Shown here: positions 32,402 to 53,547 of the stretch, one piece after another
Numbering within the stretch: the stretch's first letter is position 1
Layout: each line of letters begins with the position of its first letter
NCBI GenBank assembly: GCA_963664405.1
Contig: OY761158.1
Location: forward strand, 512,001-576,000
Origin: Thermoanaerobaculia bacterium
GTDB lineage: Bacteria > Acidobacteriota > Thermoanaerobaculia > Multivoradales > Multivoraceae
Direction of reading: 5' to 3'
DNA length: 64,000 nt
Translations under genes and position numbers: made by a program
The notes under the pieces: generated by a model
Database searches by the model: none
Told to the model about the DNA's origin: nothing
Seen by the model: only the letters and a program-made list of their open reading frames with translations

Positions 32402-35217
32402 TTGAGCTCCACAGAACAGGTCCGCTGGGCTGACAAGATCGACCAGCTCATTGCACTCTCGGACGATGAGGAGCGCGAAGCGTTCTTTGCGAAGCATCCT
32501 GAAGTCTGTTGTTCGGAAGTGGCGCGACAGCTGGGTCGCAGAACCACGAAACTGGCACACATGGACATCCCCGCGGCAAGCCGTGCGGGTGAGACGCTTA
32601 GACAGCTTGGAGGTCTTTCTCAGGAGGAGCTCTATCTGAGGGCTACAGCCAGCGCACGCTGGCGGCTATCAGTCAGCTCCAGGGCGTCGACTATAACGTC
32701 CAGCTCAAACACCTAAGAGCGGCGATCAAGCACTTCGAGTCGGCCTCGAGAGAGGATGAGGTCGCGATCACTTGCTCCAACGGACTCATGGCGCTTGCGA
32801 TCCTAGGGGAGCACGATCTCCTGAAGGCTTGGGAGCAGCGAGCCAGACGCTATTTTGAATCGCACTCAGATCGGCTCCGCCTAGGCCGACTCGAGCTAAA
32901 TGTTGGCAACCTGGCAGGCTGGCAATGTAAATGGCAGAAGGCAGTAGACGCCTACCGCAAGGCGCACCGTCTAATGCTTCTCGCGGGCGCAGAGCAAAGT
33001 GACGAACTAGCCGCACTCGCCAACCTCTCTTTCTGCCTCCTGAAGCTTGGCGATCTGTCCGCGGCGACGTCACTGATCGAGAAGACTCTTACTATCGGCC
33101 AGGAAAATGGCTGGGACCTTGATGTCGCTACGGCAGAAGCACAGCTAGCGCGACTCAGGTACCTTCAGGGCGACTTCAGATCAGCCCTCGACCTCGCAAG
33201 AACGGCAAGAACACGCTATCGGCGACACGGTTCACTCCACAGCGAAGCCCAAGTATCCGTAGCGGAAGCGGACATTCTCCTCGCGATCTGCGCACCTGAA
33301 CAGAGCGAAGCGCTGGCGCATCGGGCTCTAAGGGATTTTGAGCAGATCGGCGTTCCACTTGAGATAGGTAACGCCCTTTTGAGACTCGGGCATTGTGCGA
33401 ATTGTAAGATGAGACACCGCCTCGCACTCCGCCTCTTTCGACGCGCGAAGAAGCTCTTCAAAGAATCTCACAGCACAGCGAAGTCACTGCTGGCTAGCTA
33501 CTACATCGCTGCAACACTTAACGATCTCGGTCGCTACTCGCATAGCCGGCGGGAGGCAGAACGGGTCCTCAGGACGCCCGATTCGCGTTCGGGAACCTTT
33601 CTTCCCGTTCAGTGCCGCCTTCTACTTGGAAAACTGGCGCTAGAGCGGGGAGACGTCGAGGATTGCATCGACAACGTCGACTTGGCGCTGCGTAACATTA
33701 ACTATCTCGACTCGGCGATGATGGAAGCCGAAGCCTTCCTCGTGCTAGGTGCGGCGAGAGAGCAAGCAGGCCTGCCCGAACAGGCATATCACTCATATCA
33801 GCGATCGGAACGCAGCCTCGAGGGCGCCCGAAGGTTTCTCTCGACCGGTGAACTAGCGATCTCCTTCCTAGGCGACAAGTTGGAGGTATACGAAGCTCTT
33901 TTTGACCTCGCCCGCAAGCAAGGCAACCTCAAGGAGGCGATCTATTTCGCAGAGAAAGCTAAATCGCGAACTTTGTCGGACCTGATGCGAGAAGAGGTCC
34001 AGGATGGGAGCGGCGGTAACCGGAACCGGGATCTGAGCCCTTCGCCACTGAACAGTAGGCTGAGAGGCTACGAGAAGAGGATTCGGGAGCTCGAGTTCTC
34101 GGACGAACGCGACGTACTCGGGCAAATTGCGAGGCTGCGGGAACTCGCGAGTGACCTAACCGGGACTGCAAGCGGAGACGTGCCGAGGAAAGCAGAGAGA
34201 TTATTTGGTAGGTCGTCGCCAACTGACCAGAAACGGCCGGAGAACGTCCGAGAGTGCCTGGGGAGCGGAGAAACCCTCCTCGAATATTTCTTCTCACGAG
34301 GAACCGTATTCGCAATCGTTGTCAGTCGAGAGAACCTACAAATCGTACCCGTATCGTCAGTCTCCCGCGCTGAGAAGGTCCACCGCCTCCTCATGGCGAC
34401 TCTCTCCAGGCGTGAGGCGGAGTCGCATCTCGACAGCAGCACGCACTACCTCCAGCAACTCTACGAGCTACTCTTGGCCCCAGTCCGGCCTCTCCTCGAG
34501 GGTCCGAATGTTGTCGTCGTTCCCCATGACTTTCTCCACCAGTTACCCTTCCACTCCCTGTTAGACGGCAGTTCGTACCTCGTCGACCAATTCAGCTTTA
34601 GCTACGCGCCAAGTGCAGAAAGCCTTCGATTAGCGCGCCTGAGACCTCCCAGTAAGAACGAGGGGATTGCGGTTTTCGGACGTTCAGATGCCACCGCTCC
34701 CAATATCGCTGACGAAGTCCGTTCCCTAAACGAGCTTCTTCCCAACTGTCGCGTCTTCCTCGATGGGGATGCGACACTAGAGCGACTGCAAGAGTCGTGT
34801 CGCGAGGCCCGGTGGATTCACGTCGCAGCGCATGGACTCTTTCGAGAGGCGGATCCGGCGGCCTCTTCGATGAAATTGGACGGTTTTCTACTTTCGCCCA
34901 ACAGACTGCGCAACCTCGAACTGCAAGCCGACCTAGTTGTCCTGAGCGGCTGCAGCACAGGCCGGGGAGTGATTCGAGGCGCGGATGAGATACTCGGCCT
35001 CTCGAGGAGCCTCCTCGAAGCGGGAGTTAGATCCACAGTTGTCAGCCTGTGGGACGTTGACGACGCGGTCACAGCGGCGCTGATGCCCTCGTTCTATCGA
35101 GCTCTCCAACAAGGAGAGTCCTACAGCGATGCGCTTCGAAAGGCAATGCTAGATATTAGGCAGGTCGCACCTCATGTGTCCTTGTGGGCACCGTTCGCTC
35201 TCATGGGAGCCGGCTGA
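32402..35217 (+). pseudogene. TPR-CHAT (caspase-like) protein 1, split by a one-base frameshift near 32640
   Basis: ORF 32402-32716 plus the frame open from 32602 to 35217 align end to end with the neighbouring paralog; CHAT motifs PHDFLHQLPFH, IHVAAHG, LSGCSTG, SLWDVDD and WAPF. Confidence 0.75.
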
Positions 35218-38176
35218 GCTGCTAGCGAGCTCTCCAAGTGTTAGACTCGCCCAAGACGGTTCCACACCCCCGCCGAACCGCCGCTGTGGCAAGTGCCGTC
35301 TACGTCATCCGCACGGACTTGCAGTGTCTTCAACGTCCAGCGCACCGGAGCTTGTCGCTCCTCTTGTCGAGAGCCTCCAGCGTCTTCCAGAAGGCCAAGT
35401 CGGAGAGTTTTTCCACAACAGAAAAGAGCTCGTCACCCGTTCGACTGTCGAGGATTTGACAAGAGAAGCGACGAGGCTGCTAAGAATTGACCTGGAACTC
35501 TCTCGGCGCCTCTCCGAAGCGTCACTCTGGCTCTCGGAACAACTCGACGACGACTACTCTCGCGCCAAAGCCCATCGAGCAGCCGCCAACCTAGCTCACG
35601 CTCAGGGTCGACACACGGAAGCCCTTGAGCGCTATCGCAGAGCCCGATCCCTCTTTGAACTAATCGGAAACCAAGAAGAGGCCGCGATCACCGCGAGTTC
35701 CTCGCTGCAGGCTCTCACTTACGTCGGCGATCACGAGGCTGCCTTCGCCGAAGCCAAATTCGCGCGAACAACGTTCGAGCGCGTTGGCGATCGCTTGCGG
35801 CTGGCCCGCCTGAACTTCAACTACGCGAACATTCTTCACCACAGAGACCGATGGGCCGAGGCGGCGGGCCATTACGAGGACGCCTATCGCGACTTTCTGG
35901 AAATTGGGGAGAAGGAGGACGTTGCGGTTTGTCTCGGCAACATGGCTGTTTGCCACCAAAAACAGCAGGACTTCGTACAGGCACTCGCCTTCTATGAACG
36001 AACCCGGGAGTTCTGCGAAGAGAACGGGCTGACTGTCCTAGTGGCCGACATCGACTACAACATCGCTTACCTCTACTACCTGCGTGGCGAATACACTAGG
36101 GCACTCGAGCTCTATAGGGAGGCGAGGGTCAAGCACCGAGAGCTAGGTGACCGACACCATGAGGATCTGTGTGCTCTCGACGAAGCAGAGATCTACCTTG
36201 AGCTGAACCTGACAGTCGAGAGCGCGGATCTCGCGGGCTCAGCGTTCGATGGTTTTCAGCAAAGGGGCCTTGTTCATGAAAGCGCGAGAGCACTGACGAA
36301 TCTTGCCTTGGCGGAAGGTCGCCAAGGTAAGTCTTTTCTCGCCCTAGAATTGCTGGGCCAGGCAAGAGATCTCTATTCACAAAACGAGAACCATGTTTCG
36401 GCGGCGCTTGTTGACCTGTACAAGGCCGGTGTGCTCTATCGAGCGGGACGTCCTTTCGAAGCGAGAAGCTTCGCGAGTCAAGCAGGATGCGGTTTCGGAG
36501 AAGCCGGCCTCGCCACCAAGCAAGCCGCGTGTGAGCTTCTGTTGACACGGATCTCTCTCGATGACGGCGACCTAACTGCCGCCGCAAAACACAGCCAGTC
36601 GGTACTAGAGAAACTCTCGCTGGTCGATGCACCCAGCCTCTCTCATCTTGCGTATCTGCTGCTGGGAGAGATCGAGGAGCGCCTTGGCAATGCCGTCGGC
36701 GCCAAGGAAGCTCTGACTCAGTCACACGAACAGCTCGAGAGAATCAGAGGTCCGATGCAGACCGAGGAACAGAAGGTCGGATTCCTCGACGACCAGCTCG
36801 TCGTCTACGAGAGTCTGGTCAGCGTGATCCTCCAAGGGGACGACTCTTCAGAAGAAAAGGAAGAGGCCTTTGCCTGGGCAGAGAAGGCAAAGTCCAGAAG
36901 CCTTGCAAATCTCCTCGCGTTTCGAGCTCATCTCCTGCCCGCTACCTCGCCCGGGCGCAGCAAGCTGGCAGACCAGGTCAGACAGCTCCGCGAAGAGCTC
37001 AACTGGTACTACCGGCAGATCAATCTCCAAGAAATGCGGAGCGACGCTCCCTCAACCGAAGGCGTCGAAGCTCTGCGTGCCTACAGCAGGCAGCAGGAAG
37101 GTCGCCTCATCCGCACCCTTTCGCAGTTCCAACAGGACGATCAGGAGTTTCGTTCGCTGCAGGAGGGTCTCACCACCGACCTCGAAACGATCAGGCGCGA
37201 CCTGTCATGGGGTACAACGCTGCTCGAGTACTACGTCGCTCGAGGAACGGTATACGCACTGATCGTCGATCACCGCACGATCGAGATCGTCCCGCTCACA
37301 CTCGAGAAGACGGTACGTGGGCTCAGCGGGCTACTGCGCTCCGCGCTCTCGCGGCGCCGCGATACGAGCGACCTGCGACATCGTAAGGAGTCCGCCGCAT
37401 TCGAGTATCTTGCGGCCCTGTACGAAGAGCTCGTGGCGCCAGTGCACGACCTCCTGCGGGGTCCATCTCTAGTGGTGATTCCACACAGTCTACTCTTCTA
37501 TCTTCCCTTCCACGCATTCCCCACCGGCTCCGGCTACCTCGCCGACGAATTCACGGTGTCGTACGCGCCAAGCGCAACAGTTTTTCATCTATCCAAGATC
37601 AAAGACCCGAGCGACGACGCTACTGGTACCGTGTTTTTCTGCCCCGATGACACGCGAACCGACCTTCTCGAGCTGGCGGCAGCTATCAAGAGACTCGAGC
37701 CCGATACTGAGCTGATACCTGGGCAGCAAGCGACCGGAGAGGCACTCCAAGCCAGGGCGAGCAAAGCTCGCTTCATCTATCTGTCGGCGCAGGGCCATTA
37801 TCGAGAAGACAATCCAATGTTCTCGTCTCTCGAAATGGGAGGCGGATCGATCCACCTTTTCGATCTCTTTCAGCTTCATCTGCGAGCCGACGTAGTGTCA
37901 CTGCTTGGCTGCGGACCAGGGCTGAACACACAAGGCAAGGGTGACGAAGTGGTGGGCCTGGTCCGCGGCCTCCTGTACGCGGGAGCTCGCTCCGTAGTGA
38001 CGACCGTTTGGGACGTCGAGGATTCCACCGCCGCCGAGTTCTCTTCCGCCTTCCACCGACACCTCCAGAACGGAGAGAGCAAGGCACTCGCGACCAGTCT
38101 CGCCATCACCGAGCTCAGGAGCAGGCACCCCGACCCCTACCACTGGGCTGGATTCGCGCTCTACGGTGAGGCCTAG
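35174..38176 (+). CDS. TPR-CHAT protein 2; catalytic His replaced by Gln (true start probably downstream, ~35320)
   Basis: Multiple TPRs, AEKAKSRSL, IYLSAQG, LLGCGPG, TVWDVED and HWAGF motifs. Confidence 0.85.
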   Translation: MCPCGHRSLSWEPAELLASSPSVRLAQDGSTPPPNRRCGKCRLRHPHGLAVSSTSSAPELVAPLVESLQRLPEGQVGEFFHNRKELVTRSTVEDLTREATRLLRIDLELSRRLSEASLWLSEQLDDDYSRAKAHRAAANLAHAQGRHTEALERYRRARSLFELIGNQEEAAITASSSLQALTYVGDHEAAFAEAKFARTTFERVGDRLRLARLNFNYANILHHRDRWAEAAGHYEDAYRDFLEIGEKEDVAVCLGNMAVCHQKQQDFVQALAFYERTREFCEENGLTVLVADIDYNIAYLYYLRGEYTRALELYREARVKHRELGDRHHEDLCALDEAEIYLELNLTVESADLAGSAFDGFQQRGLVHESARALTNLALAEGRQGKSFLALELLGQARDLYSQNENHVSAALVDLYKAGVLYRAGRPFEARSFASQAGCGFGEAGLATKQAACELLLTRISLDDGDLTAAAKHSQSVLEKLSLVDAPSLSHLAYLLLGEIEERLGNAVGAKEALTQSHEQLERIRGPMQTEEQKVGFLDDQLVVYESLVSVILQGDDSSEEKEEAFAWAEKAKSRSLANLLAFRAHLLPATSPGRSKLADQVRQLREELNWYYRQINLQEMRSDAPSTEGVEALRAYSRQQEGRLIRTLSQFQQDDQEFRSLQEGLTTDLETIRRDLSWGTTLLEYYVARGTVYALIVDHRTIEIVPLTLEKTVRGLSGLLRSALSRRRDTSDLRHRKESAAFEYLAALYEELVAPVHDLLRGPSLVVIPHSLLFYLPFHAFPTGSGYLADEFTVSYAPSATVFHLSKIKDPSDDATGTVFFCPDDTRTDLLELAAAIKRLEPDTELIPGQQATGEALQARASKARFIYLSAQGHYREDNPMFSSLEMGGGSIHLFDLFQLHLRADVVSLLGCGPGLNTQGKGDEVVGLVRGLLYAGARSVVTTVWDVEDSTAAEFSSAFHRHLQNGESKALATSLAITELRSRHPDPYHWAGFALYGEA

Positions 38177-38264: not shown

Positions 38265-38987
38265 ATGACTCTAGAGCTCTCGGCACCCGGCTCCTTAGTT
38301 ACCCGAGCGAGGGAGAAGAACCCTCGTCTCGCTCACCTCCAGCGAAGAAGGCTGGAGGAGGAGCTGAAGTCGGTAAAGACGGGGATCATGTGCGCGCTCA
38401 ATATGCTGCTGGATCTCAAAAATCTGCGCACTGGATTGCACGCGACACGCCTCGCCGAATGGGCGGTCCTCGCAGCCGAGAACCTAGGAGTGGATGAGAG
38501 TGAGCTCCGAGATATCGAGGCCGCATCTCTTTTACACGACATCGGCAAGATCGGTCTCCCGGATTCCATTCTGCTGAAGCCGGGAAAGCTCTCCGATGAA
38601 GAGTTCGCGATCACCAAGAAGCATCCCGAGTACGGCTGGGCAATCCTGAGATCGATTCCCGGACTCGAGAAAGCCAGCCTCTTGGTGCTGCATCATCACG
38701 AACGTTTCGACGGTAGGGGCTACCCCTCGGGCCTAGCGGGAGAGAACATCCCTCTCGGGTCTCGCATCGTGGCCGTCGTCGATGCCTTCGACGCCATGAT
38801 CTCGAGCCGCGCCTACCGAGACGCCCTGCCCCTCGAAGAGGTGCTTCGCCGCCTCGACGCCGACACCGGCAGTCAGTTCGACCCCAAGATCACGCCCTTC
38901 TTCATCGAGCTGTCGAAGGAGCATCTGCCCGAGCTGATGAAGCGCGACGAAGACGTCCCCGCCGGCCTGGCCCGGGTTCTGCCTTAG
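38265..38987 (+). CDS. Stand-alone HD-GYP domain protein (cyclic dinucleotide phosphodiesterase family)
   Basis: LLHDIGK, HHERFDGRGYP, VVDAFDAM and QFDP motifs. Confidence 0.9.
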   Translation: MTLELSAPGSLVTRAREKNPRLAHLQRRRLEEELKSVKTGIMCALNMLLDLKNLRTGLHATRLAEWAVLAAENLGVDESELRDIEAASLLHDIGKIGLPDSILLKPGKLSDEEFAITKKHPEYGWAILRSIPGLEKASLLVLHHHERFDGRGYPSGLAGENIPLGSRIVAVVDAFDAMISSRAYRDALPLEEVLRRLDADTGSQFDPKITPFFIELSKEHLPELMKRDEDVPAGLARVLP

Positions 38988-39192
38988 TCTCGGCTCTCCA
39001 CTGGCCCATACACATCTTTGCATTGGCTCAAGCGACTGGGCTACAATTACTGGTTAGCCTTTAGGGGTCAAGCGGATTTTCCGCACAAAGACCCTTTGAA
39101 ACACCTTCTCCCGCGTTACGGCGGGGGTAGGAAATCAGTACTGCGCTTTGGCGCAGTAGCTGCGCATTGTATTAATAACAAAGGAGTTATGC

Positions 39193-39246
39193 ATGTATCA
39201 GCCACACACGAAGACCGGTCATTCCGTCAGTCCAATCCTGGAGTAA
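39193..39246 (+). CDS. Peptide precursor P1: MYQPHTKTG-HSVSPILE (17 aa)
   Basis: Hand-translated; RBS AAGGAG at 39181; same KTG + 8-mer ILE end as neighbours. Confidence 0.75.
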   Translation: MYQPHTKTGHSVSPILE

Positions 39247-39280
39247 GTGCTCCGATAGCGATTCTTATAGGAGACACGAC

Positions 39281-39448
39281 ATGAAGATCAAAACGGACCT
39301 CCGAGGCGGCTATTCGTCGCCCAAAGCCGATTCAGAACGGCCAAGCAACAACCCGCAGGAATACTGCATTCAACGCCCATCGTCGCTTCTTTGGCCCCCC
39401 TCCGCTATCACGCAGACGGGTAACTGCGTCGCGGCGATTCTCGAATAG
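39281..39448 (+). CDS. Peptide precursor P2 (55 aa): MKIKTDLRGG-YSSPKADSERPSNNPQEYCIQRPSSLLWPPSAITQTG-NCVAAILE
   Basis: Hand-translated; RBS AGGAG; double-Gly leader. Confidence 0.8.
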   Translation: MKIKTDLRGGYSSPKADSERPSNNPQEYCIQRPSSLLWPPSAITQTGNCVAAILE

Positions 39449-39479
39449 AAACCCAACCTAAACCTAGATCGGAGAAGAG

Positions 39480-39533
39480 ATGAAAAACCTAGTCCTAAAG
39501 ACAGGCAACACCGTAGCAGCCATCTTGGAATAG
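39480..39533 (+). CDS. Peptide precursor P3: MKNLVLKTG-NTVAAILE (17 aa)
   Basis: Hand-translated; RBS GGAG at 39471. Confidence 0.78.
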   Translation: MKNLVLKTGNTVAAILE

Positions 39534-39574
39534 TGGCTCCACAATACCGAACGCGAATTTTTCGAGGAGATCCG

Positions 39575-39631
39575 ATGAACGTCAAGACCAACGTCAAAGC
39601 TGGTTCCCATCTCAACCACATCATGGAATAG
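39575..39631 (+). CDS. Peptide precursor P4: MNVKTNVKAG-SHLNHIME (18 aa)
   Basis: RBS GAGGAG; differs from the later copies at synonymous sites. Confidence 0.85.
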   Translation: MNVKTNVKAGSHLNHIME

Positions 39632-39666
39632 CCCTAGCTAACTCAACAGATATTTGGAGAAATCAA

Positions 39667-39723
39667 ATGAACATCAAAACCAACGTCAAGGCCGGTTCCC
39701 ATCTCAACCACATCATGGAATAG
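39667..39723 (+). CDS. Peptide precursor P5: MNIKTNVKAG-SHLNHIME
   Basis: RBS GGAG; tandem copy with one V>I change in the leader. Confidence 0.85.
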   Translation: MNIKTNVKAGSHLNHIME

Positions 39724-39759
39724 CCCTTAGCTAACTCAACAGATATTTGGAGAAATCAA

Positions 39760-39816
39760 ATGAACGTCAAAACCAACGTCAAGGCCGGTTCCCATCTCAA
39801 CCACATCATGGAATAG
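39760..39816 (+). CDS. Peptide precursor P6: MNVKTNVKAG-SHLNHIME
   Basis: RBS GGAG; tandem copy. Confidence 0.85.
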   Translation: MNVKTNVKAGSHLNHIME

Positions 39817-39852
39817 CCCTTAGCTAACTCAACAGATATTTGGAGAAATCAA

Positions 39853-39909
39853 ATGAACGTCAAAACCAACGTCAAGGCCGGTTCCCATCTCAACCACATC
39901 ATGGAATAG
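39853..39909 (+). CDS. Peptide precursor P7: MNVKTNVKAG-SHLNHIME
   Basis: RBS GGAG; tandem copy. Confidence 0.85.
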   Translation: MNVKTNVKAGSHLNHIME

Positions 39910-39944
39910 CCCTAGCTAACTCAACAGATATTTGGAGAAATCAA

Positions 39945-40001
39945 ATGAACGTCAAAACCAACGTCAAGGCCGGTTCCCATCTCAACCACATCATGGAGTA
40001 G
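39945..40001 (+). CDS. Peptide precursor P8: MNVKTNVKAG-SHLNHIME
   Basis: RBS GGAG; tandem copy ending GAG TAG. Confidence 0.85.
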   Translation: MNVKTNVKAGSHLNHIME

Positions 40002-40008
40002 CGCAGTC

Positions 40009-40179
40009 ATGAAAATCAGAACAGACATCAAAGCAGGCTATTCAGCAACCAAGATGGAATCCCTCCCCAACCTGGAGCTGCCGCGACTCACACTCGACGA
40101 CTTCCCCAGCGTGAAGGAAGAGACTCTCAGCAGGCCCTTCTTCAAGACCGGCCAAGCAGTCGCTGCGATCCTCGAGTAG
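40009..40179 (+). CDS. Peptide precursor P9 (56 aa): MKIRTDIKAG-YSATKMESLPNLELPRLTLDDFPSVKEETLSRPFFKTG-QAVAAILE
   Basis: Hand-translated; paralog of P2 in leader, length and C-terminus. Confidence 0.8.
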   Translation: MKIRTDIKAGYSATKMESLPNLELPRLTLDDFPSVKEETLSRPFFKTGQAVAAILE

Positions 40180-40255
40180 GTTTCTTTGAAGGGGGAGCCG
40201 CAGTGCTCCAACCCGACAAGGAAGGGACTCGAACTTCTTCTTGAAGAGAGTGTCC

Positions 40256-42373
40256 CTACGAGTGCGCGATCGCGACGACGCTGGGAACCCGCTCTAACAC
40301 GAGCTTCGAAGCTCTCAGAGCGTTACCACTATCCAGCGGCTCGAAACTCTCATCGAGAATCGTAAGACCTTCGTTCTGAAGAAGCGTTCGCGCCAGAAAG
40401 ACCCGGTTTCGCTCACCATGAGAGAGCTGCCAACCGGTGTCACCCACCATCTGAAAAATCCCTGCAGGCATTCGCTCGATTAGCTCGCCAAGACCGAGCT
40501 CGCGACACACCTGTTCCGCCTCAGCAATGTCTGAAGGCAACGCCGGCCATCGGCGGCCCATCAAGAGATTGAAGGCGAGGCTCTCGCTGAGGATGTGGTT
40601 CTCGTGGAATTGAGGAGCCAAGACGACCTGGCGGCGCCAACGCTTCACGCCGGTACTGTGCTGATCGAGCCCCCCAAGCAATAGAAGGCCCGAGTCCGGG
40701 CGACGCAAGCCTGCCAGGAGCGCAGCCAGGGTGGACTTGCCTCCGCCCGAAGGCCCCTGCAACAAAATACGGTCTCCCTCTCTGACTTCCACGTCACAAG
40801 AGTGGAGTACCGCCTCTGGCCGACCCGGGTAGGAGAAGCTCAGATCTCGGGCCTCCAAGAGCTTCCCATCCGCCGGTCTGTCACCCACCACGACACCTGG
40901 CGCACTCGGTAGCTGGGGTCGCGCGGCGGCGGCGAAGATCTCTCGAACGCTCCGCCACGCCACGACGGCGCCGAAGAGCTGCGCCATGCCCGCTGCGATC
41001 GACAGCAAGGCCCTGTAGGTGAGCAACACTCCACCAAGACCTATGGCAACCCGTACTAGAGTGACCTCGCCCGCCACCATGCTGGGGGCGAGCCCAAGAA
41101 CGCCTATCACCAGCCAACCGCGAGGTACGAGCGCGCCGAGCGCGGCGGTAACCCGATCGAGACCCACCGAGTGGCGAAGGTAGGCCTCGAGCTCCTGATC
41201 CTCCTGATCATGCCAGTGCGCCCTTCCCTCCTGGGCGAGGCGAGTCCGATACCCAAGCATGTTCTCGACCAATTGATGAGTAAGCTCGAGACGCGCCGAA
41301 GTCCACTGCTCTCGACAGCGAAAGTAAAACCAGCCGAGGCCGGCGGTCACTCCCAGCCACAACAGGAGCAACAGAACATGGAGAGCGCCGCCCGCGCCCT
41401 CGGCCAAAACGAAGGACGCCATCAGCACTTCGATGCTGCCAAAGAACAGCAGGAATCCCCCGCCGAGCGCAAGCGACTCCAGCGCCTCCGACTCCAAGAC
41501 CTTGCCGAGCAGCTCACCAGCTCCCTGATGGCGAATCTCCTCGGGCTCGAGCCGCATCGCGCCAGCAAGCAGTCTCTGCTTGAGGGCTCCCCCCGCTCGA
41601 ACGGAGATCTCGCCCTGCAGCCAGGTACTCCACATCCGCAGCGGCACCAGACTAAAGAGAATGAGCACCCAAGCGGTCAGCCAGCCACGGTCGATATGCC
41701 CCTGTAAGGCAGCACGTCCCACGATCCACCAAGACAGCATGTACATGGCGTATTGGGCAGCATGGGCAACGCCAAGGGCCACAGAGCGCCCGACAACACC
41801 CATACGCGAGAGTCGGCGGCGAAACGAAGAGCCAGCTGGGGCGCGCAGCATCCATATACTGCCTAAACGCTGCGAGGCCAGACGCTGCCGCAAGATCTCT
41901 TTCCTTGCCCGCTCCTCGTCTTTCGCCGCCACCCCCGCACTGCGAAGGAACGCCCTGACTTCACCGTCGAGAGGATCCTCGAGGCGCGCGCAGATCCAGC
42001 CCGCCACAGTTTCCGCCGGCACTCGCTCGATCGCGAGGTCGGGGCTCAGCAACAAGGCTCTGCCACGGCGTGAGCCAAGCAGGGCCAGGAAGCGAAACTC
42101 CTGATCGACTCGCAGCCGCAGAACAGCCGGACCGCCTCGCCGAAGGAAGAGCTCGACCTCGGGGTAAGTTACTTGTGTAGCCTCGGCGTCGACACCGAGC
42201 CACTCACAAGCGGTCTCGGTCCACAACGCTACTTCCGCCGCGTCGTCAGGGTTGAAAGAAGCGGGAGGGTCCTCGACCTTCTGGCGCGAGAGCCCAGATC
42301 GAAAGGTCATCTCGCGAAGAAGCTCTCCGAGCCTTGCCGCCGGCCACGTCGCCTCCCAGGGGCCGACGATCAC
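40256..42373 (-). CDS. ABC exporter subunit (N-terminal domain without a recognisable C39 Cys motif + TMD + NBD); partner of the PCAT
   Basis: Walker A GPSGGGKST, LSHGE, ILDES; GTG start at 42373 overlaps the reconstructed PCAT stop (GTGA). Confidence 0.85.
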   Translation of the reverse strand: MIVGPWEATWPAARLGELLREMTFRSGLSRQKVEDPPASFNPDDAAEVALWTETACEWLGVDAEATQVTYPEVELFLRRGGPAVLRLRVDQEFRFLALLGSRRGRALLLSPDLAIERVPAETVAGWICARLEDPLDGEVRAFLRSAGVAAKDEERARKEILRQRLASQRLGSIWMLRAPAGSSFRRRLSRMGVVGRSVALGVAHAAQYAMYMLSWWIVGRAALQGHIDRGWLTAWVLILFSLVPLRMWSTWLQGEISVRAGGALKQRLLAGAMRLEPEEIRHQGAGELLGKVLESEALESLALGGGFLLFFGSIEVLMASFVLAEGAGGALHVLLLLLWLGVTAGLGWFYFRCREQWTSARLELTHQLVENMLGYRTRLAQEGRAHWHDQEDQELEAYLRHSVGLDRVTAALGALVPRGWLVIGVLGLAPSMVAGEVTLVRVAIGLGGVLLTYRALLSIAAGMAQLFGAVVAWRSVREIFAAAARPQLPSAPGVVVGDRPADGKLLEARDLSFSYPGRPEAVLHSCDVEVREGDRILLQGPSGGGKSTLAALLAGLRRPDSGLLLLGGLDQHSTGVKRWRRQVVLAPQFHENHILSESLAFNLLMGRRWPALPSDIAEAEQVCRELGLGELIERMPAGIFQMVGDTGWQLSHGERNRVFLARTLLQNEGLTILDESFEPLDSGNALRASKLVLERVPSVVAIAHS

Positions 42374-42461
42374 CCCCGGCCCTCCTCCCCCGCGATCTCG
42401 CGCAACCCACCTCGCTCCAACCAAAGCCGGCGCTGTTACCGGCTACGAGAAAGCGCACTTA

Positions 42462-44466
42462 GGGTCGGCGCGGAAATAACTTCACATTATCGCCGGAGCG
42501 TGTGAGGCCGAGGCGCCACAGGGCGGTCGCTGCATTGGAGGTGGTGGTGAGCTGAGCCCAGGCTGTGGGGCAAGCTCTTCCTGCTCGGTTCGCGGTCTCG
42601 GCGAGAGGGTGTAGTTCCACTTTCCTAGGAAGTCGCTCCTGGCCACCGCGAGCTGCAGCATTTCCTTGTCCGATACCCTGACTCCTTTCTGGTATTGGCG
42701 TTGATCACGGCACGGCTCGACGCGCAGTCCGGTGGATGTCGTCGTGTTGCGGACGAGGTTGACGAGGATCTCGAAACTCTCGAGAGGAACTCCGGCCCAG
42801 TTCTTGCTGATCTCGCTGAACATCCTGTGCTCGATGGGATTCCATTTACTGGTGCCAGTTGGATAGTGGGCGACGGTGATGATGAGGCCGCACTTGTCTA
42901 CGAGCTTCTCCTGGAGGTACTTCTTCCAGGCTCGAAGCCGTGCGCCGTTGCTTGCGCCGCTGTCGGCAAGAATGAGGAGACGCTGAGACGCCGGATAGTG
43001 AGATCGACCGTATTTGAGCCACCAGGTCGCGATGCTGTTGACAGCGAACTCCGGCGTGTCCGACGACTGTCCGAGGACGAGAACGCCGAAGTTCCTCTGA
43101 AGATCGTAGATCCCATAGGGGGAGGCGATGGCGAGAGCTTCGGACCGGAAGTCGTGATCCTTGACCCGCTTGGCCTCGCGGCACCATGTCTGTCCCTGGT
43201 TCTTGAACCGACCGATCAGCTCCTTCTTCTTCGTATCGACGCTGATGATCGGGTCGCCAGCGCTTGTGAAATCCTCGCGCAGTCGCTTGATGGCCTTGAA
43301 CTGTGCATCACGATCTGGGGAGTTCCCCGAAGACAGACATTTCCTATTGCTCTTGAGGGAATAGTTCAGGTCTGCGAGCAATCGACGCACCACCGTAGCC
43401 GATACGATGATGTCAAGGCGTTCGGCAAGGCATTGGGCCACCTTTGCAGCGGTCTCGTGCGTCCATCTTTTTGATGACATGGGATCACCAGCTATATCGG
43501 CCTCGAGTATGGAATGGATTCCATCGACTATCTCGGGCGTTTTTTTTCCACTCGTTGGTTGCCACCGCCTGCTCTTCGAACTCTTCCGCGCTCCACGGAG
43601 CCGCCGAAGAGCTCGCGACGTCCTTTTGCGACTGTATGAGGGTCCAGGTCCAGAAGATCGGCGATCTTCCGGTCGCCGCCATGCCCGAGCTTGGTCGCTT
43701 CCAGGCCAGCGAAGAGCCGCCGCTGGCGTTCGTCTAGCAGGCTGAAGAATAAAACGATGGCAGCCCTGAGCTCCTCGGGGAGCACTTCTGGAACGAGGCT
43801 GGCAGCTACATCCTGGAGAGCCTGCCGTTCGTTGCGCATCAGCTTCTGCTGACGACGGCGCCCTGTTTCCGAGCACAAGTATACGAACCTCTTCCCAACT
43901 CTGGATCGTACGATTCTCTTGCGACGAACGAGGTGCAACATCGCGTGCTTGACCTCGACCTGCAGCAGGAGCTCGAGTTCAGAAGCCGTATAGCCGGCAG
44001 CGGACCGGTCCACGGCAGCCACCGCAGTTTCGAGGAGGCTGCCATGCCGACTGAACCTCGCCGAACCGCACGACCACAAACCCAGATCGTCGAAATCGGG
44101 AATCTCGTTCAAGGTATAGAACCGCCCTCGATCCGAGTAGCTGGCCAAATAGCCCAATCGAGACAGCGAACGGTAGACCGTCATGGTGGCTCGGGTTCCC
44201 ATGGCGTCCTTGAGCTCATCCATGGTGGCCATCTGTTCGCTCATCAAGAGCTCGCGCACTGTTGCATCACGATCTTCGGCTCGTACCATTTGGTATAGTT
44301 CCCCTTCCAAAAGAGGTGACAGGGAAAACTATACCAAATGCGGGCAGGGCTATGCTAGCTCTAAACCTTGCAAACAAGGCGCGTACCGGAGGATTATGCG
44401 GTGGCTGAAGAAGGGGGCAGTGGTATGGTCACCCCAGATACTGGAAACTTATTTCCGCGCCGACCC
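42462..44466 (-). mobile_element. ISAzo13-family IS (2005 bp)
   Basis: 18-bp perfect IR GGGTCGGCGCGGAAATAA; 3-bp TSD TTA at 42459-42461 and 44467-44469. Confidence 0.88.
42482..44310 (-). CDS. ISAzo13 transposase in two frames (43528-44310 and 42482-~43545) joined at an A8 tract
   Basis: LDERQRRLFAG in frame A; ISVDTKKKELIG, ADSGASN and SKWNPIEHRMFS in frame B; GGAAAAAAAAC at 43540-43547 (minus strand). Confidence 0.82.
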
Positions 44467-44469
44467 TTA

Positions 44470-44807
44470 GTTGGCTGCGAGTCGGTTTTTTGTCCCCGCG
44501 AGGCGTGACTCAGGGTGTGGCGCAGATAGTCGAGGTACCCCTCGGGGGGTGGCGTCGTGGGGAGTTCTCGGAGGATGGGGAGAAAGTAGGCGAGGGATCG
44601 GATGGGCTGGAGCTTTGGTAGGCGCGGATCTCGGCATGCGCGTCGGGCGGAGCCGAGGAGGAGGGCGGCCTGGAGGACGGTGAGAGGCAGGTCTTGGTCG
44701 AAGAGCTGGTCGACGATGACGCGGTCGCCGTGGTGGAAGCGGTGCGGGGTGTCGGGAAGGAGTCGATAGAGGCGGAGGAGCTGGCGCCGATAGTGGCTTC
44801 GGGTCAT
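44470..44807 (-). CDS. IS accessory protein (homolog of 28839-29186); the ORF now reads through into ISAzo13
   Basis: LRLYRLLPDT...AALLLGSARR...PIRSLAYFLPILRE...GYLDYL; ATGA overlap with istB. Confidence 0.7.
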
Positions 44808-45598
44808 GAGCGTCGTCGTGCTGCGCTCCGCCTTTTGGCGCGGTCCTTGGCCTTTTTTTCAGCAGCCTCCTTGGCCTCCTTGCGGCGATAGGAGTTAGCC
44901 TCGATCTTGACGATCTCGGCGTGGTGGGTGAGTCGATCGACGAGAGTGACGACGCAGGAGGCGTTGGGAAAGACCTCGGCCCATTCGGCGAAGGGCTTGT
45001 TGGTGGTGAGAAGAATGGGCTTGTTGCCGTATCTCCTGGAGACGACCTCGAAGAGGAGATCCGCGTGGCGGTGGTCGTAGGAGAGATAGCCGAGCTCATC
45101 GATTGCCAAAAGCGAGGGTCGGGTGTATTTGGAGAGCCTTCTCTGGAGCGCCGAGGGGGTTTCCTGGACGGCGAGATCGTTGAGCATGTCGGAGGCGGTG
45201 ACGAAGCTGGCGGTGGCCCCTCGTTGCAGCGCCTGGTAGAGGAGGTTCTTGGCAATCATGGTCTTGCCGACACCGTTGGGTCCGAGGAGGATGACGTTGG
45301 TGATGTCGTCGAGGAATTGGAGGGTGAGCAGATCCTGGATCTGCTCGCGGTCGATGCGCTGGGGCCAGGAGAAGTCGAAGTCGGCGATGCTCTTGAAGAG
45401 CCCGACGCGGCTGGTGCGGATGCGCCGTTCGAGGCTGCGCCGTTTGCGCTCGGCCTCTTCTTTGCGCAGCAGCTGTTCGAGCCAGGGCTGTTCTCGGTAG
45501 GTGCCCCAGTCGTCGACGAGGGCGTAGAAGCCGAGGGATCGGGCGAGCTCTCGTAGTGGTTCGTCAGGGATCGTTGGACTCTTCCTGGGTCGGGCCAT
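44804..45598 (-). CDS. istB: IS21-family helper ATPase IstB
   Basis: FDFSW, GPNGVGKT, LAIDELGY and DRLTHH motifs. Confidence 0.92.
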   Translation of the reverse strand: MARPRKSPTIPDEPLRELARSLGFYALVDDWGTYREQPWLEQLLRKEEAERKRRSLERRIRTSRVGLFKSIADFDFSWPQRIDREQIQDLLTLQFLDDITNVILLGPNGVGKTMIAKNLLYQALQRGATASFVTASDMLNDLAVQETPSALQRRLSKYTRPSLLAIDELGYLSYDHRHADLLFEVVSRRYGNKPILLTTNKPFAEWAEVFPNASCVVTLVDRLTHHAEIVKIEANSYRRKEAKEAAEKKAKDRAKRRSAARRRS

Positions 45599-47072
45599 CG
45601 TCGTTGCCTCCAAGTTGGTCGTAGTCCTCGAGGTTGTGCGGTCTCACGGAGAGATCTCGCTGTTGGAGCTCCTGGCTGAGCGGCACCGGTAAAGCCGGGG
45701 GCTGACCGAGGCCGCGCTGGTGCCGTTCGAGTAGGAGCCGGACGGACTGGAATCGCGGTGCGTGGTTCAGGAGCGCTTCGCGCACGGCTTTGTCGAGTCG
45801 CTGGGGGCCGTACTGGCGCAGGAGTCGGAGCAGGCCGGCGGTCTGCGTTCCGAGGTTCTCGCCTCGCTCGGCGAGCTGCTGCATCAGCTCTTCGCATCGA
45901 GGCACAGCGGAAAACAGCCGATGGAAGCCCCGGTGTCGTCGGGCCCTGCGTTTGTGAGCGAGGAGCTCCTCGAGGTGTTGAGGATCGAGGATCTGCTCGC
46001 CCCGGGAGTACGAGCGAGGGTGCTCGGCGAGGAGCTCCTGGCCATCGAGGATCCGCACCCGATGCTCGCTGGCGAGGAGCGTGACGGTCCTCTGCACATG
46101 ACTGTGCGGCACCGAGTAGTCGTTGAGGTCGAAGCGCACGATCGGCGTCTTTCTGACCTTGATCTCCAGTCGCAGGTCGGTTTCGAAGTCGTCTCCGGGA
46201 AGCTCAAGCAGTCGAGGTCGTTCCTGGGCCAGGGCGCTTTTCACGGTTCGCTGTCGGTCCTGCGGCCAGGGTCTGCGCTGCGACCTCTGGCACCATTCCA
46301 GGACCTGCCGATTCAGACGATCCAAATCGCTCACCGTTCGGGCGCCGAAGAACGAGCTTCGCAGGAAGCGGATTGCGCGCTCGACGCGGCCTTTCTCATT
46401 TCCCCGAGCCACCGCGGCGACGGTGGGAAGGAAGCCGTAGTGGCTGGCGAAATCGAGCAGCACGGGATGGAAGCGCACCGCGGTTCCCTGCCGCTCGATC
46501 ACCGCGGTTCGCAGGTTGTCGTACAGAACGGTCCTGACGACGCCGTCGACGTAGTGGAAGGCCAGCTGGTGAGCGTGCAAGAAGGTTTCGAGACGAGTGT
46601 CGAGGGTGAAGTGCACGAAGACCGTGCGCGAGAACGACAGCACGAAGACGAAGGCATAGAGCCGACGATGTGCCCGGCCGACGCGGAGCCGACCGAAGTG
46701 GCCCCAGTCGACCTGCGCCTGCTCTCCTGGCAGCATGCGCAGCGAGAGAAACGCCTCGCGCTGGGGCTTCGGTCGCATCGAGGCCACCAGGTGGCGAAAC
46801 TGATCCGGGCCTCCTGGATAGCCGCGCTCCACCACCATGGTGTAGAGACGGCTCGCCGGCAGTCGTGGGTAGGTCCCGAGCACCTGCTCGATGAACGGCA
46901 GGTAAGGATCGATCATCCTCCCTCGTCGCTGCTGGGGTAGCACGCCGGACTTCTCCAGCGCCCGGCGCACGGTTGAGGGGTGCAGCTGTAGCTGTCGAGC
47001 GATCGTGCCGACTTTCCACTTCTCGACCAGGAACAGACGACGGATCTCCCCGCGCAGCTGTGCGTCGATCAC
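45564..47072 (-). CDS. istA: IS21-family transposase IstA
   Basis: PGEQAQVDWG, YDN and NEKGRVER DDE pattern; N-terminal HTH. Confidence 0.92.
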   Translation of the reverse strand: MIDAQLRGEIRRLFLVEKWKVGTIARQLQLHPSTVRRALEKSGVLPQQRRGRMIDPYLPFIEQVLGTYPRLPASRLYTMVVERGYPGGPDQFRHLVASMRPKPQREAFLSLRMLPGEQAQVDWGHFGRLRVGRAHRRLYAFVFVLSFSRTVFVHFTLDTRLETFLHAHQLAFHYVDGVVRTVLYDNLRTAVIERQGTAVRFHPVLLDFASHYGFLPTVAAVARGNEKGRVERAIRFLRSSFFGARTVSDLDRLNRQVLEWCQRSQRRPWPQDRQRTVKSALAQERPRLLELPGDDFETDLRLEIKVRKTPIVRFDLNDYSVPHSHVQRTVTLLASEHRVRILDGQELLAEHPRSYSRGEQILDPQHLEELLAHKRRARRHRGFHRLFSAVPRCEELMQQLAERGENLGTQTAGLLRLLRQYGPQRLDKAVREALLNHAPRFQSVRLLLERHQRGLGQPPALPVPLSQELQQRDLSVRPHNLEDYDQLGGNDDGPTQEESNDP

Positions 47073-47076
47073 GCCC

Positions 47077-47472
47077 CTATCTCCGTCGGCAACGACGAAA
47101 GCTCGTTCGCACAAACTCTCGGCAGGCCTCTCCACACTGCATGCATCGCGGATTCCTCGGGTCGTAGCGCACTTCGCGCCTCGGAGTCTCGATCCGACAC
47201 AGTGTCCTCCCCGAAGTACCGCCTGGGGTACCCTGATGCGTCACTTTCTCTGCCCGCTCGCGCTGGCGCCGACGGTAGCGGGCCTGACGGGCGGCATGAC
47301 AATGCCGACCTCGGAGGCTTCGCTGGTACCGATGGCCGGCCGCCCGAGTCGATTCCCGACGAGCCACCAGAGCACAAGCCCGGCAGTAACGCTGGCCACG
47401 GTCACAGTGCGAGCACAGCGAGATACGCCGACGGCATCGAGCACAGTCGAAGAGTCGGTAGTCCGGTCGCAT
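47077..47472 (-). CDS. IS accessory Cys-rich (zinc-ribbon-like) protein
   Basis: CARC...CSHCDRGQRYCRAC...CMQC; lies directly upstream of istA. Confidence 0.65.
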   Translation of the reverse strand: MRPDYRLFDCARCRRRISLCSHCDRGQRYCRACALVARRESTRAAGHRYQRSLRGRHCHAARQARYRRRQRERAEKVTHQGTPGGTSGRTLCRIETPRREVRYDPRNPRCMQCGEACREFVRTSFRRCRRR

Positions 47473-47769
47473 CGTCGCCTCCCATTCGACGACGACCCCG
47501 ACTCTCTGCCATACTGCAAGCGCAGCTAATGCTGCGGTTTGGGGCAGAGCCCGGGGCGTTTTCTACTTCGCTTTCCCGGGCTCTCGCCGTCTCTGGTCGG
47601 CCTGCTCTATCAGAGCAGAGCCCGCACTGCAAAGCCCTACACCGACTCACGCATCTCTTCCGACCGCAAACACGCCGCCGGGACCACGCACCCGGACCGC
47701 CGTTCCGGCGGGATGATGCCGCCCTTCCTGAAGAAGGCCTAGCTTTCCCGCGGTCGCGAAGCCCTCAGC

Positions 47770-52383: not shown

Positions 52384-53547
52384 CTAGGCTCCCTCTACCA
52401 GTCTCCCGACCGACCTCAATACCAGTCCCAACGGTGACGAGCTCTCGACCTCGACCTCGAGCTCACCCGGCAATCCATGCTCGAGCACGATCCCGGCAGG
52501 CACGCCCGGTTCGATACTGAACTCCACTCGGACCCTGCCATCGCGGGCCTCTGAGTCTACGTTCGATACTCGAGCCTCGACGCTCCCGTAATGGGTCCAT
52601 GGGTACCCATCGAGCCGTAGGCGCGCACGTTGCCCCGGTCGGATGCGACCGACGGCCTTGCCGGGCTCGAACTCGGCCACCACGACATGCCCCCTGTCAC
52701 TCTCAGGCACGATCGCACAAAGCTGATCGCCCGCCGCAACGTAGGCGCCCTGGAGAAGAGACTCCGCGATCTTAGCGACCGTACCGCTGACGGGCGCTCT
52801 GATCGAGCGTTGCCCGAGCTCTACCTCTAGCCGCTCCTCGGTTCTTTCAGAAGTGTCGATCGAGCCGCGCAACTGACTTGCCTGCCGGTGCAGACCCTCG
52901 ATGTCACTCCGGCGATCCCTCTCCTCGATTCGCAGTTGCTCCTGACGCCGCGCCACCGCCGTACGACGCTGCGACTCGATCGCCTGAGCCATCGCCATCT
53001 CCGACTTCGCCTTCTCGAGATCTCGAACCGATTGCACCCCCTGCTCTTTCAGTTCCAGGACCTTGGCGTGATTGGAGACCGCGAACTCTCTCGCCGCCTC
53101 GGCTTCGTTCAAAGAGGCCTCCAGCTCCTCTACCTCCAGGCGGGCCGCGTTCTTCAACTGCGCCAGCGCCTTCTCCTCGGAAGCGATCTCGCCGCTGAGG
53201 TCGGTCAACTCCGATTCGCTCCCTCTACGCGCGGACTGCCTCTCGGCCAATTGCAGCTCCTCGGTGCGGGGGTCCAACTCGAGCAGAAGGTCACCGGCTT
53301 CGACTCGTCTCCCCAGCGAGATGTGAGTCGCGACAACTCTTCCAGATACGGGCGCGGCAACCGCATGGCTCGCGCCACGAACCTCCACCCGAGCCGTCTC
53401 ACTCACTTCGTAGAGAGAGATGCTGGCGAAGAAGAACCACAAGCCCCAGGCGGTCAGGAGCAACAGCGAAGCCACCAGCATGACTGCTGAGAACCGGAAC
53501 GAATCCGCCTCTAAGGAGCGCGCAGAGCGTGAGAATGGGATCGCCAT
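52384..53547 (-). CDS. HlyD-family membrane fusion/secretion adaptor
   Basis: N-terminal TM helix, lipoyl halves VAAPVSG / IRAPVSG, coiled coil, IRPGQRARLRLDGYPWTHYG. Confidence 0.9.
   Translation of the reverse strand: MAIPFSRSARSLEADSFRFSAVMLVASLLLLTAWGLWFFFASISLYEVSETARVEVRGASHAVAAPVSGRVVATHISLGRRVEAGDLLLELDPRTEELQLAERQSARRGSESELTDLSGEIASEEKALAQLKNAARLEVEELEASLNEAEAAREFAVSNHAKVLELKEQGVQSVRDLEKAKSEMAMAQAIESQRRTAVARRQEQLRIEERDRRSDIEGLHRQASQLRGSIDTSERTEERLEVELGQRSIRAPVSGTVAKIAESLLQGAYVAAGDQLCAIVPESDRGHVVVAEFEPGKAVGRIRPGQRARLRLDGYPWTHYGSVEARVSNVDSEARDGRVRVEFSIEPGVPAGIVLEHGLPGELEVEVESSSPLGLVLRSVGRLVEGA

Follow-up and report, generated by a model that had tools for sequence, protein, structure and literature searches.

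A compact array of nine very short genes is the subject of this study. It lies in a stretch of 64,000 nucleotides (hereafter the window, numbered from its first letter) of the genome of a Thermoanaerobaculia bacterium (GenBank assembly GCA_963664405.1, contig OY761158.1, positions 512,001 to 576,000 of the forward strand), next to the genes of a putative peptide exporter. The nine co-oriented open reading frames (ORFs), which encode 17, 55, 17, five times 18 and 56 amino acids (aa), occupy the plus strand from 39193 to 40179, and the C-terminus of all nine products consists of a Gly followed by eight residues terminating in I-[L/M]-E-stop. We refer to them as micro-genes 1 to 9 (an oblique marks the putative cleavage site):

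39193..39246, plus strand: micro-gene 1, 17 aa, MYQPHTKTG/HSVSPILE, with the most divergent leader of the array
39281..39448, plus strand: micro-gene 2, 55 aa, leader MKIKTDLRGG, variable middle, second site QTG/NCVAAILE
39480..39533, plus strand: micro-gene 3, 17 aa, MKNLVLKTG/NTVAAILE
39575-39631, plus strand: micro-gene 4, 18 aa, MN[V/I]KTNVKAG/SHLNHIME
39667-39723, plus strand: micro-gene 5, 18 aa, same product pattern
39760-39816, plus strand: micro-gene 6, 18 aa, same product pattern
39853-39909, plus strand: micro-gene 7, 18 aa, same product pattern
39945-40001, plus strand: micro-gene 8, 18 aa, same product pattern
40009..40179, plus strand: micro-gene 9, 56 aa, leader MKIRTDIKAG, variable middle, FFKTG/QAVAAILE

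A preliminary description of this DNA had reported nine co-oriented ORFs with GGAG-type ribosome-binding sites, each product ending in Gly plus exactly eight residues closing on I-[L/M]-E. The ORFs, their binding sites and the C-terminal format (9/9) were all recovered here; the array start given there, 39181, takes in the first ribosome-binding site, and the first ORF begins at 39193. GGAG or GAGG is found 5-10 nt 5′ of the ATG in eight of the nine micro-genes: micro-gene 1 has AAAGGAG 7 nt 5′ of its start, micro-genes 4-8 have TTTGGAG or GAGGAG at each copy, and the site of micro-gene 9, the most widely conserved form in the array, is a GGAG within the last codons of micro-gene 8 (tandem copy 5). 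Micro-genes 4-8 constitute a 93-bp tandem repeat (4.6 copies, 97% matches). A scan of 38800-40400 for sigma-70 promoters and terminators gave nothing on the plus strand above shuffle expectation. A GC-rich hairpin at 39127-39165 (AGTACTGCGC...GCGCAGTAGCT), about 30 nt 5′ of the first micro-gene, could be the terminator of the preceding gene, which encodes an HD-GYP-type protein, or a regulatory element.

The C-terminal motif [KRQ][TAG]G.{5}I[LM]E-stop was found nine times in a six-frame scan of the complete 6.78-Mb genome, all nine inside the array; the less demanding I[LM]E-stop has 32 matches, of which the array holds nine, and the seven genome-wide matches of the N-terminal leader motif likewise all fall inside it. 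Among the tandem copies five coding positions vary, of which four are synonymous third positions and one is a V>I replacement. An alignment of eight homologues of the long form (55/56-aa type) is conserved at both ends and not in the middle, with M1, K2, G10, T47, G48, V51, A53, I54, L55 and E56 invariant. The excess of synonymous changes among the copies and the retention of both ends across the homologues bear out the earlier suggestion that selection acts on the peptide. Transcription is weakly hinted at by a 123-nt contig from a metatranscriptome run, identical to 39698-39820, and a 151-nt contig from a run presumed to be RNA also falls on the array; these comparisons used contigs, not raw reads, and uncovered parts of the array carry no information. 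By the uniqueness of their motifs and the conservation of their products, the nine ORFs are real micro-genes. A strain related to ours (90-99% identity over 39250-40007) was encountered in a seawater metagenome run, X8, one contig of which passes directly from 39250 to 39575 and from 39600 to 40007, which leaves its array with fewer genes; it also carries a variant C-terminus, ...A-I-F-E-stop.

The leader consensus, M-K-[V/I]-K-T-x-[V/L/I]-K-A-G, recurs well outside this genome. Searched as a DNA pattern in 300 genomes of the same order, M-K-x-K-T-x-x-K-x-G matched 41 times, in 27 of them, and reversed-pattern controls had no match; all 41 start ORFs preceded by a Shine-Dalgarno (SD) sequence, and in 40 cases this is a micro-ORF whose tail measures 4 to about 45 residues, the one exception continuing into a 337-aa ORF. 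A narrower leader pattern occurred in at least 120 stretches of named genome records. The 80 stretches listed and examined, several of which duplicate same-order loci, come from Acidobacteriota classes, Pirellulaceae, Myxococcota, Chloroflexota, Verrucomicrobiota and several Gammaproteobacteria. The largest array has 13 genes (L158; L-numbers denote loci, P-numbers database proteins and G-numbers same-order genomes, G000 being that of the window). A profile search of 5.8 billion proteins, a collection that does not hold micro-genes below about 30 codons, returned 328 matches at E ≤ 10; among the 120 listed there was no Pfam domain and no name other than 'hypothetical protein'. All loci combined encode 282 distinct peptides, most with hypervariable tails of 6-9 residues, and an SD-like tetramer accompanies 267 of these; leader statistics on this set are partly circular because it was gathered by the leader pattern.

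Neither of the two long window peptides matched NCBIfam at E ≤ 0.01, and of ten family members compared at E ≤ 10 eight had no match and two had chance-level ones (L100 to IF-3 and threonine ammonia-lyase, L040 to epilancin ElxA with E 0.34). Pfam gave nothing below E 0.04 for ten family members, and no description of the family was found in open-access literature text, a search that motifs present only in figures or supplements would escape. As judged from the shared leader, the nine ORFs belong to a large unannotated family of precursors made of a 9-10-residue tag and a very short hypervariable tail. The family includes multi-cassette precursors in which a KVKTNVKAG unit, a short core and NHNQT..RGL are repeated two to five times; the pattern [L-K-V-K-T-N-V-K-A-G][3-12-residue core][N-H-N-Q-T-x-x-R-G] was noted in P0003-P0015, L100:5731-6093 and L132:2569-2901, and its follower motif NHNQT belongs to no known family. 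Core subfamilies in loci L059-L161 have conserved C-termini of other kinds: x-G-x-x-[I/M]-D-[P/D]-N-G, x-x-L-W-x-x, G-V-L-I-S-D, G-[V/I]-x-x-T-G-A-D and G-G-x-x-W-G-G.

The lack of annotation, the shortness of the ORFs and the tandem DNA repeat that accounts for five of the nine units could also be taken to mean that the array is an untranslated repeat or an RNA element with accidental reading frames. However, the peptide motif is kept across genera and phyla where the DNA differs, ribosome-binding sites are present, the copies show a synonymous bias, the reversed-pattern controls were empty and an Rfam search of 38500-40700 at E ≤ 1 gave zero matches; this explanation, already disfavoured, has in our view hardly any chance of being correct.

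The array is bordered by the following genes and mobile elements:

32788..35217, plus strand: TPR-CHAT protein 1, 809 aa (CHAT, E 5.3e-62)
35174..38176, plus strand: TPR-CHAT protein 2, 1000 aa (CHAT, E 7.6e-38)
38265..38987, plus strand: stand-alone HD-GYP-type HD domain protein, 240 aa (HD_5, E 2.6e-42), directly 5′ of the array
40256..42424, minus strand: partner ABC exporter subunit without active peptidase, 722 aa (ABC_tran), converging on the array
42432..47765, no strand assigned: IS21-family insertion sequence (IS; istA 45564-47135, istB 44804-45613) with a nested ISAZ013-type IS
~42458-44470, no strand assigned: the nested ISAZ013-type IS, ~2.0 kb (transposase 42482-43876)
47770..50478, minus strand: peptidase-containing ABC transporter (PCAT), 902 aa, with an N-terminal Peptidase_C39 domain (E 1.6e-20), a membrane domain and a nucleotide-binding domain
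52384..53547, minus strand: HlyD-type membrane-fusion protein, 387 aa (HlyD_3, E 1.9e-16)

The catalytic set of the C39 domain of the PCAT (Q21, C27, H107, D123) is invariant in 12 of 12 orthologues. Searched against the PDB, the C39 profile recovered PCAT1 (4ry2, E 1.6e-13), ComA (3k8u) and LahT150 (6mpz), and with the whole PCAT matches to the nucleotide-binding domain dominate. Besides its membrane and nucleotide-binding domains, the partner ABC protein has a degenerate C39-like domain at its N-terminus, presumably the arrangement found in HlyB, whose C39-like domain is a catalytically dead C39 fold that binds substrate. As in HlyB, this domain aligns to C39 without the Cys and His, a likeness that amounts to a profile match of 65% probability (hhalign, E 6e-5).

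The 5.3-kb gap between the partner ABC gene and the PCAT gene consists of the IS21 element and its nested IS and lies exactly at the gene junction. Elsewhere in the genome there are 21 and 20 more copies of the two elements, with identities given as 100%, which points to a very recent burst of transposition. Since the PCAT and ABC genes abut or overlap in relatives, the operon appears to have been split recently in this genome; both ORFs are intact.

The two TPR-CHAT genes and the HD-GYP gene, all upstream, have the same orientation as the array. TPR-CHAT protein 1 possesses the His/Cys dyad, and no signal peptide was seen in it; TPR-CHAT protein 2 is probably inactive because its catalytic His is replaced by Gln. 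In the same-order genome G006 the second paralogue (L022:4097-6946) has lost both His and Cys and the first keeps the dyad, suggesting a pair made of an active protease and a pseudo-protease.

The arrangement recurs in related genomes. On contig 12 of G006 the gene order is as here (CHAT, CHAT, HD-GYP, array, convergent ABC), the ABC protein being 52% and the HD-GYP orthologue (L022) 66% identical; its array comprises four copies of MKIKTSVKVG/QSIDCIKE, one variant and a 48-aa product, MKTKTNLKAG...KTG/QAVSAILE. Contig 1 of the same genome carries a second, decayed CHAT/HD-GYP/array/ABC/PCAT locus (L023 1275-5254), in which the CHAT and HD-GYP genes are fragmented and the micro-genes altered (MKIRTNVKVGQSIDCINE, MKIKTSVKVGQSSCAITE). 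In G121, a member of another family, (M)KVKTKVKAG/QSLMPILE is encoded 236 bp 3′ of HlyD-PCAT-ABC, and a TPR kinase gene has MKVKTNVKAG/QSTAHILE encoded about 1 kb from its 3′ end. Arrays with I-x-E endings are consequently found beside the orthologous exporter in two other genera, those of G006 and G121. Micro-gene 9 has full-length relatives in five metagenomic proteins (P0038, P0045, P0095, P0096, P0100) and a further homologue at L022:8476-8622. In the closest relative, G001 (ABC 68% identical), the contig does not continue past the 3′ end of the ABC gene, so that the expected place of the array is cut off, and the lack of a match to the C-terminal DNA pattern in G001 (91% complete) and G013 (79% complete) is not evidence of absence.

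The association of the leader with the exporter was assessed in 112 peptide loci with two hidden Markov models (HMMs), one for the C39 domain and one for the N-terminal domain of the partner, which matched 27 and 29 loci, respectively; among the 80 named 8-kb stretches 21 contain a C39 or C39-like ABC gene, as do six of 23 same-order flanks. Within the order, the partner-ABC domain occurs in 68 of the 300 genomes. With G000 left out, 22 of 27 genomes that have the leader also have the cassette, against 45 of 272 that lack the leader (odds ratio 22; Fisher p 8e-12, a value without correction for relatedness that overstates the association because the genomes are related). Eight orthologous cassettes were checked: four have adjacent leader genes, three have none and one lies at a contig end. 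The search for small leader-bearing ORFs next to PCAT homologues that the preliminary description had proposed was thus positive, such ORFs lying beside orthologous cassettes in G006 (twice), G037, G026 and G121. Its view of the peptides as substrates of the neighbouring PCAT gains support from this adjacency, from the odds ratio and from the intact C39 residues, and they probably are such substrates. That description had missed the conserved TPR-CHAT and HD-GYP genes upstream and the wide occurrence of the leader family. A complex prediction for the C39 domain with the 56-aa precursor family gave no answer (score 0.00) and was used neither way.

Known pairings of double-glycine leaders with C39 transporters include ComC/ComAB and the class II bacteriocins, and the residue before the Gly (P2) at such sites is classically Gly, Ala or Ser, not Thr. 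The family described here shares with them a leader that ends in a small residue and Gly and has a hydrophobic residue at -4, conservation that ends at the Gly, an intact C39 Gln/Cys/His/Asp set and substrate genes placed by the transporter. In the array the leaders end in R-G-G or K-A-G in micro-genes 2 and 4-9, and T-G is found in micro-genes 1 and 3 and at the internal sites. Across the 282 peptides, a set partly selected by the pattern itself, leader position 9 is Ala in 256, Ser in 17, Val in eight and Gly in one; position -4 is V/I/L/M in 282 of 282, which is no test as the collecting regular expression required that class. Conservation stops at Gly10 and hypervariability begins after it. 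The 55/56-aa forms have two sites, one at the leader and one at an internal V/F-K-T-G.

The differences are as clear: leaders of 9-10 residues counted from Met1, Lys or Arg at -7, no position -12 at all, cores of mostly 6-9 residues, mainly diderm hosts and, at the internal sites here, Thr at P2. The shortest leaders tested with the double-glycine peptidase LahT150 had 13-14 residues and were recognized through -4, -7 and -12 (PMC6363468), and lengths of about 24 residues for TIGR01847 peptides and of 70-83 for N11P/NHLP precursors are reported elsewhere (PMC2887384). Set against the description that emerges from the two papers, a leader ~15-30 residues long and hydrophobic at -4, -7 and -12 (PMC6363468, PMC2887384), the leaders of the array do not conform. 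In its overall organization the array behaves like a double-glycine leader/PCAT system, yet it departs from such systems in leader length and at -7 and -12. Other candidates were rejected: a Sec signal, as a hydrophobic core is absent from the 10-residue leader; attenuation leader peptides, as the genes stand in tandem, vary in their tails and have a ribosome-binding site each; and a non-coding repeat, CRISPR-like or other, as it is the peptide that is conserved.

The NHLP/Nif11 export cassette, as described in PMC2887384, is composed of a HlyD-like protein (TIGR03794), an ABC protein with peptidase (TIGR03796) and one without (TIGR03797), and Haft et al. (2010) predicted there that cassettes of this type serve more, undiscovered peptide families. 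The exporter of the window has the same three-gene architecture, and these models are the best or near-best NCBIfam matches for the PCAT and its partner. The scores, however, lie far below the cut-offs: 192 versus 853.3 bits for TIGR03796, 94.7 versus 709.4 bits for TIGR03797, and 37.6 versus 156.2 bits for the HlyD protein. Neither nitrile hydratase nor Nif11 resembles the array precursors, and LanM and cyclodehydratase are missing. By these profile scores the exporter is a distant sister of the NHLP/Nif11 cassette and the array is not a member of the NHLP/N11P group.

PCAT/HlyD exporters classically serve bacteriocins and microcins, and we know of no pore-forming or receptor-hijacking bacteriocin as short as 4-9 residues. 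The products could be small unmodified bacteriocins, of class II or microcin-like, and the array a cocktail for competition: such cargo is described for PCAT/HlyD exporters in PMC2887384, and arrays of diverse paralogues resemble bacteriocin loci. But the cores of the family measure only 4-9 residues, no immunity-like small membrane protein recurs at its loci, and neighbouring genes for receptor-type kinases and extracytoplasmic function (ECF) sigma factors point to sensing, all of which makes an antimicrobial role very unlikely.

Modification of the products is a further question. Radical SAM, YcaO, LanM/LanB, ATP-grasp, cytochrome P450 and MNIO-type enzymes were looked for, and no tailoring enzyme recurs in the 112 loci; in the window between 26.5 and 64 kb none is linked to the array, though such enzymes may be encoded elsewhere. 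The earlier remark that no tailoring enzyme of RiPPs (peptides made by ribosomes and modified after translation) lies nearby therefore holds for the window and extends to the other loci, in agreement with unmodified peptides. If the products were nevertheless RiPP precursors, the 10-residue leader would recruit a modifying enzyme encoded elsewhere, or the adjacent caspase-like CHAT protease would carry out processing or transpeptidation, and the final product would be modified or cyclised. RiPPs typically have hypervariable cores after a conserved leader, Cys is abundant in some subfamilies (for example PxGCGSGGCM, PTCNSCRG, LAPTCGCGA), the repeated follower NHNQT resembles a second recognition site, an active TPR-CHAT gene lies just 5′ of the array with others near peptides at further loci, and NHLP/Nif11 precursors are often far from their enzymes (PMC2887384). 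Apart from the lack of a recurrent tailoring gene, what speaks against this explanation is that the radical SAM gene in the window (60471-61517) is 20 kb away, that the I-L-E octapeptides have no common modifiable residue and that CHAT is present at only 6 of 112 loci; we regard it as unlikely.

The genes that recur around the family are informative in this respect. Clusters found in at least four of the 112 loci are ABC/PCAT, HlyD, kinase-TPR, CHAT, ECF sigma, MacB-like permeases, a beta-lactamase-fold protein and two Pfam-less clusters, the latter probably antisense-shadow ORFs. Ser/Thr kinase genes of the kinase-transmembrane-TPR type are present in 16 loci, and a single hydrophobic segment between the kinase and TPR domains predicts a periplasmic location for the latter. 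In eight of these 16 loci the peptide gene is no more than 1.5 kb from the 3′ end of the kinase gene, and with one such kinase per 77-160 kb the binomial p of this proximity is 1e-3 to 7e-6. ECF sigma genes (PF07638) are found in six loci and TPR-CHAT proteins in six; the CHAT proteins of L063 and L080 have signal-peptide-like N-termini, whereas their counterparts in G000 and G006 lack a signal peptide. At L080:9014-10027 (minus strand) a leader-core-NHNQT cassette (MKIKTQVKAGGISINHNQT...) is in frame with a 337-aa ORF in which TPR-like repeats are visible by eye, possibly a natural fusion that joins the peptide family to TPR domains.

This proximity of TPR and peptide genes recalls the RRNPP systems of Firmicutes (Rap/Phr, NprR/NprX, PlcR/PapR), in which a TPR sensor gene is followed by a pro-peptide gene; the pro-peptide exits through Sec and is cut outside, and its active 5-8 C-terminal residues are re-imported by Opp to a cytoplasmic receptor. 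The likeness lies in the adjacency, with two TPR-CHAT genes here and in G006 and kinase-transmembrane-TPR genes in 16 of 112 loci. In contrast to RRNPP peptides, the tag points to a PCAT, the leader has no hydrophobic core and the partners are kinases or CHAT proteases whose TPR domains are mostly predicted to be periplasmic. The peptide PatS of Anabaena, which acts on HetR between filament cells, ends in RGSGR; this motif is present in 0 of the 9 array products, and their sequences are otherwise not similar to it. PatS is the nearest analogue in format: in PMC4133259 its 17-residue product is read as a 9-residue processing part plus an 8-residue active peptide, a 9+8 division that matches micro-genes 1 and 3, and the C39-type exporter HetC is named as a candidate processor, its role being left undecided there.

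Clamping of a C-terminal carboxylate is common among TPR domains (Hop-EEVD and PEX5-SKL are examples), and the conserved free C-terminus I-[L/M]-E is a feature that they could bind. The peptides might act inside the producer, as ligands or substrates of the cytoplasmic TPR-CHAT and HD-GYP proteins, for example in a protease or cyclic di-GMP switch, the exporter serving for removal or immunity. The common order CHAT, CHAT, HD-GYP, array in G000 and G006 and the lack of a signal peptide in the CHAT proteins would fit such a role, and PatS, also 17 aa long, requires processing for producer immunity (PMC4133259). However, the TPR partner at most loci is predicted to be extracytoplasmic (the kinases, and the CHAT proteins of L063 and L080), and the strongest association of the family is with the exporter, so that we consider intracellular action improbable.

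We therefore favour, with moderate confidence, the interpretation that the nine ORFs encode exported, leader-cleaved and unmodified octapeptides, which are probably signals. The position of the array beside a peptide-cutting export pump and the recurrence of its leader in many groups suggest small secreted peptides, possibly with a signalling function. The tag would be bound in the cytoplasm by the C39 and C39-like domains of the PCAT/partner ABC/HlyD exporter, and the C39 domain would cut after the Gly of K-A/G/T-G; MNVKTNVKAGSHLNHIME, MKNLVLKTGNTVAAILE and the 56-aa precursor are candidate substrates. An octapeptide of the form x-x-[V/L]-x-x-I-[L/M]-E with a free carboxylate would then be pumped out unmodified through ABC/HlyD. 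The array would yield five different candidate octapeptides, SHLNHIME, NTVAAILE, HSVSPILE, QAVAAILE and NCVAAILE, with SHLNHIME, encoded five times, at a higher dose. Finally, the octapeptides would most likely be read as signals by TPR domains through the conserved free C-terminus, candidate readers being the two TPR-CHAT proteins and the HD-GYP protein just upstream and, in other genomes, the membrane Ser/Thr kinases with predicted periplasmic TPR and adjacent ECF sigma genes.

Several observations weigh against this interpretation. At 9-10 residues the leader is below the 13-14 of the LahT150 substrates (PMC6363468), and it has none of the hydrophobic contacts at -7 and -12. K/Q-T-G, with Thr at P2, precedes four of the five distinct octapeptides; Pro, awkward for many proteases, directly follows the Gly in 49 of the 282 peptides; and micro-gene 1 (MYQPHTKTG...) has no leader consensus. 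About three-quarters of the leader loci have no cassette in the DNA examined, and the intergenic DNA flanking the G036, G033 and G030 cassettes contains no leader-like ORF with an SD sequence before it. In the genome of the window export may be impaired, as the IS pair separates the PCAT from its partner ABC; the 123-nt contig from the RNA library may be contaminating DNA; and with the TPR-CHAT proteins here predicted to be cytoplasmic, an exported peptide would have no evident route to them.

More tentatively, the array may be a local dialect of a widespread, hitherto unannotated system of peptide signalling in diderm bacteria, made up of tag micro-genes, the exporter and either TPR kinases with ECF sigma factors or TPR-CHAT proteins, whose periplasmic TPR domains would recognize the peptides by their conserved free C-termini. 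Such a system would consist of micro-genes of ~14-21 codons with a universal 10-residue tag and secreted peptides of 4-9 residues, a format that we put forward with reserve. It is conceivable, with the same caution, that the hypervariable cores are strain-specific 'private' signals and the multi-cassette precursors polyprotein versions, and that the system spans Acidobacteriota, Planctomycetota, Myxococcota, Chloroflexota, Verrucomicrobiota and Gammaproteobacteria. To our knowledge, no peptide-based cell-to-cell signalling system has been described in the phyla concerned.

If the favoured interpretation is correct, these hidden genes would make a single 10-residue motif a means to find micro-genes that escape annotation. 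The minimal substrate signal of a C39 transporter would shrink to about ten residues from Met1, which would matter for the transport mechanism and for the use of C39 peptidases as leader-removal tools. It would also provide a concrete route of cell-to-cell peptide signalling with candidate receptors, namely TPR kinases with ECF sigma factors and TPR-CHAT proteins.

Other genes of the exporter region and its surroundings are of less direct relevance. Two lie between the PCAT and HlyD genes:

50684-51316, plus strand: ORF without family, 210 aa
51198-51899, plus strand: sigma-70/ECF-like factor

The pair is kept in G001 (L021), with 58% identity for the sigma factor and 40% for the 210-aa ORF. 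Directly beside the HlyD gene, 53619-55853 (minus strand) encodes a 744-aa pyridine-nucleotide-disulfide oxidoreductase/SelD-like fusion that scores above the cut-off of TIGR03169 and below that of TIGR04369. At 26550-28846 there is another transposition module, with an rve integrase and an AAA_22 ATPase. In the segment 60471-63153 the radical SAM gene mentioned above adjoins a gene similar to class II lysyl-tRNA synthetase, and the two probably serve the modification of elongation factor P, a housekeeping function, rather than peptide tailoring.

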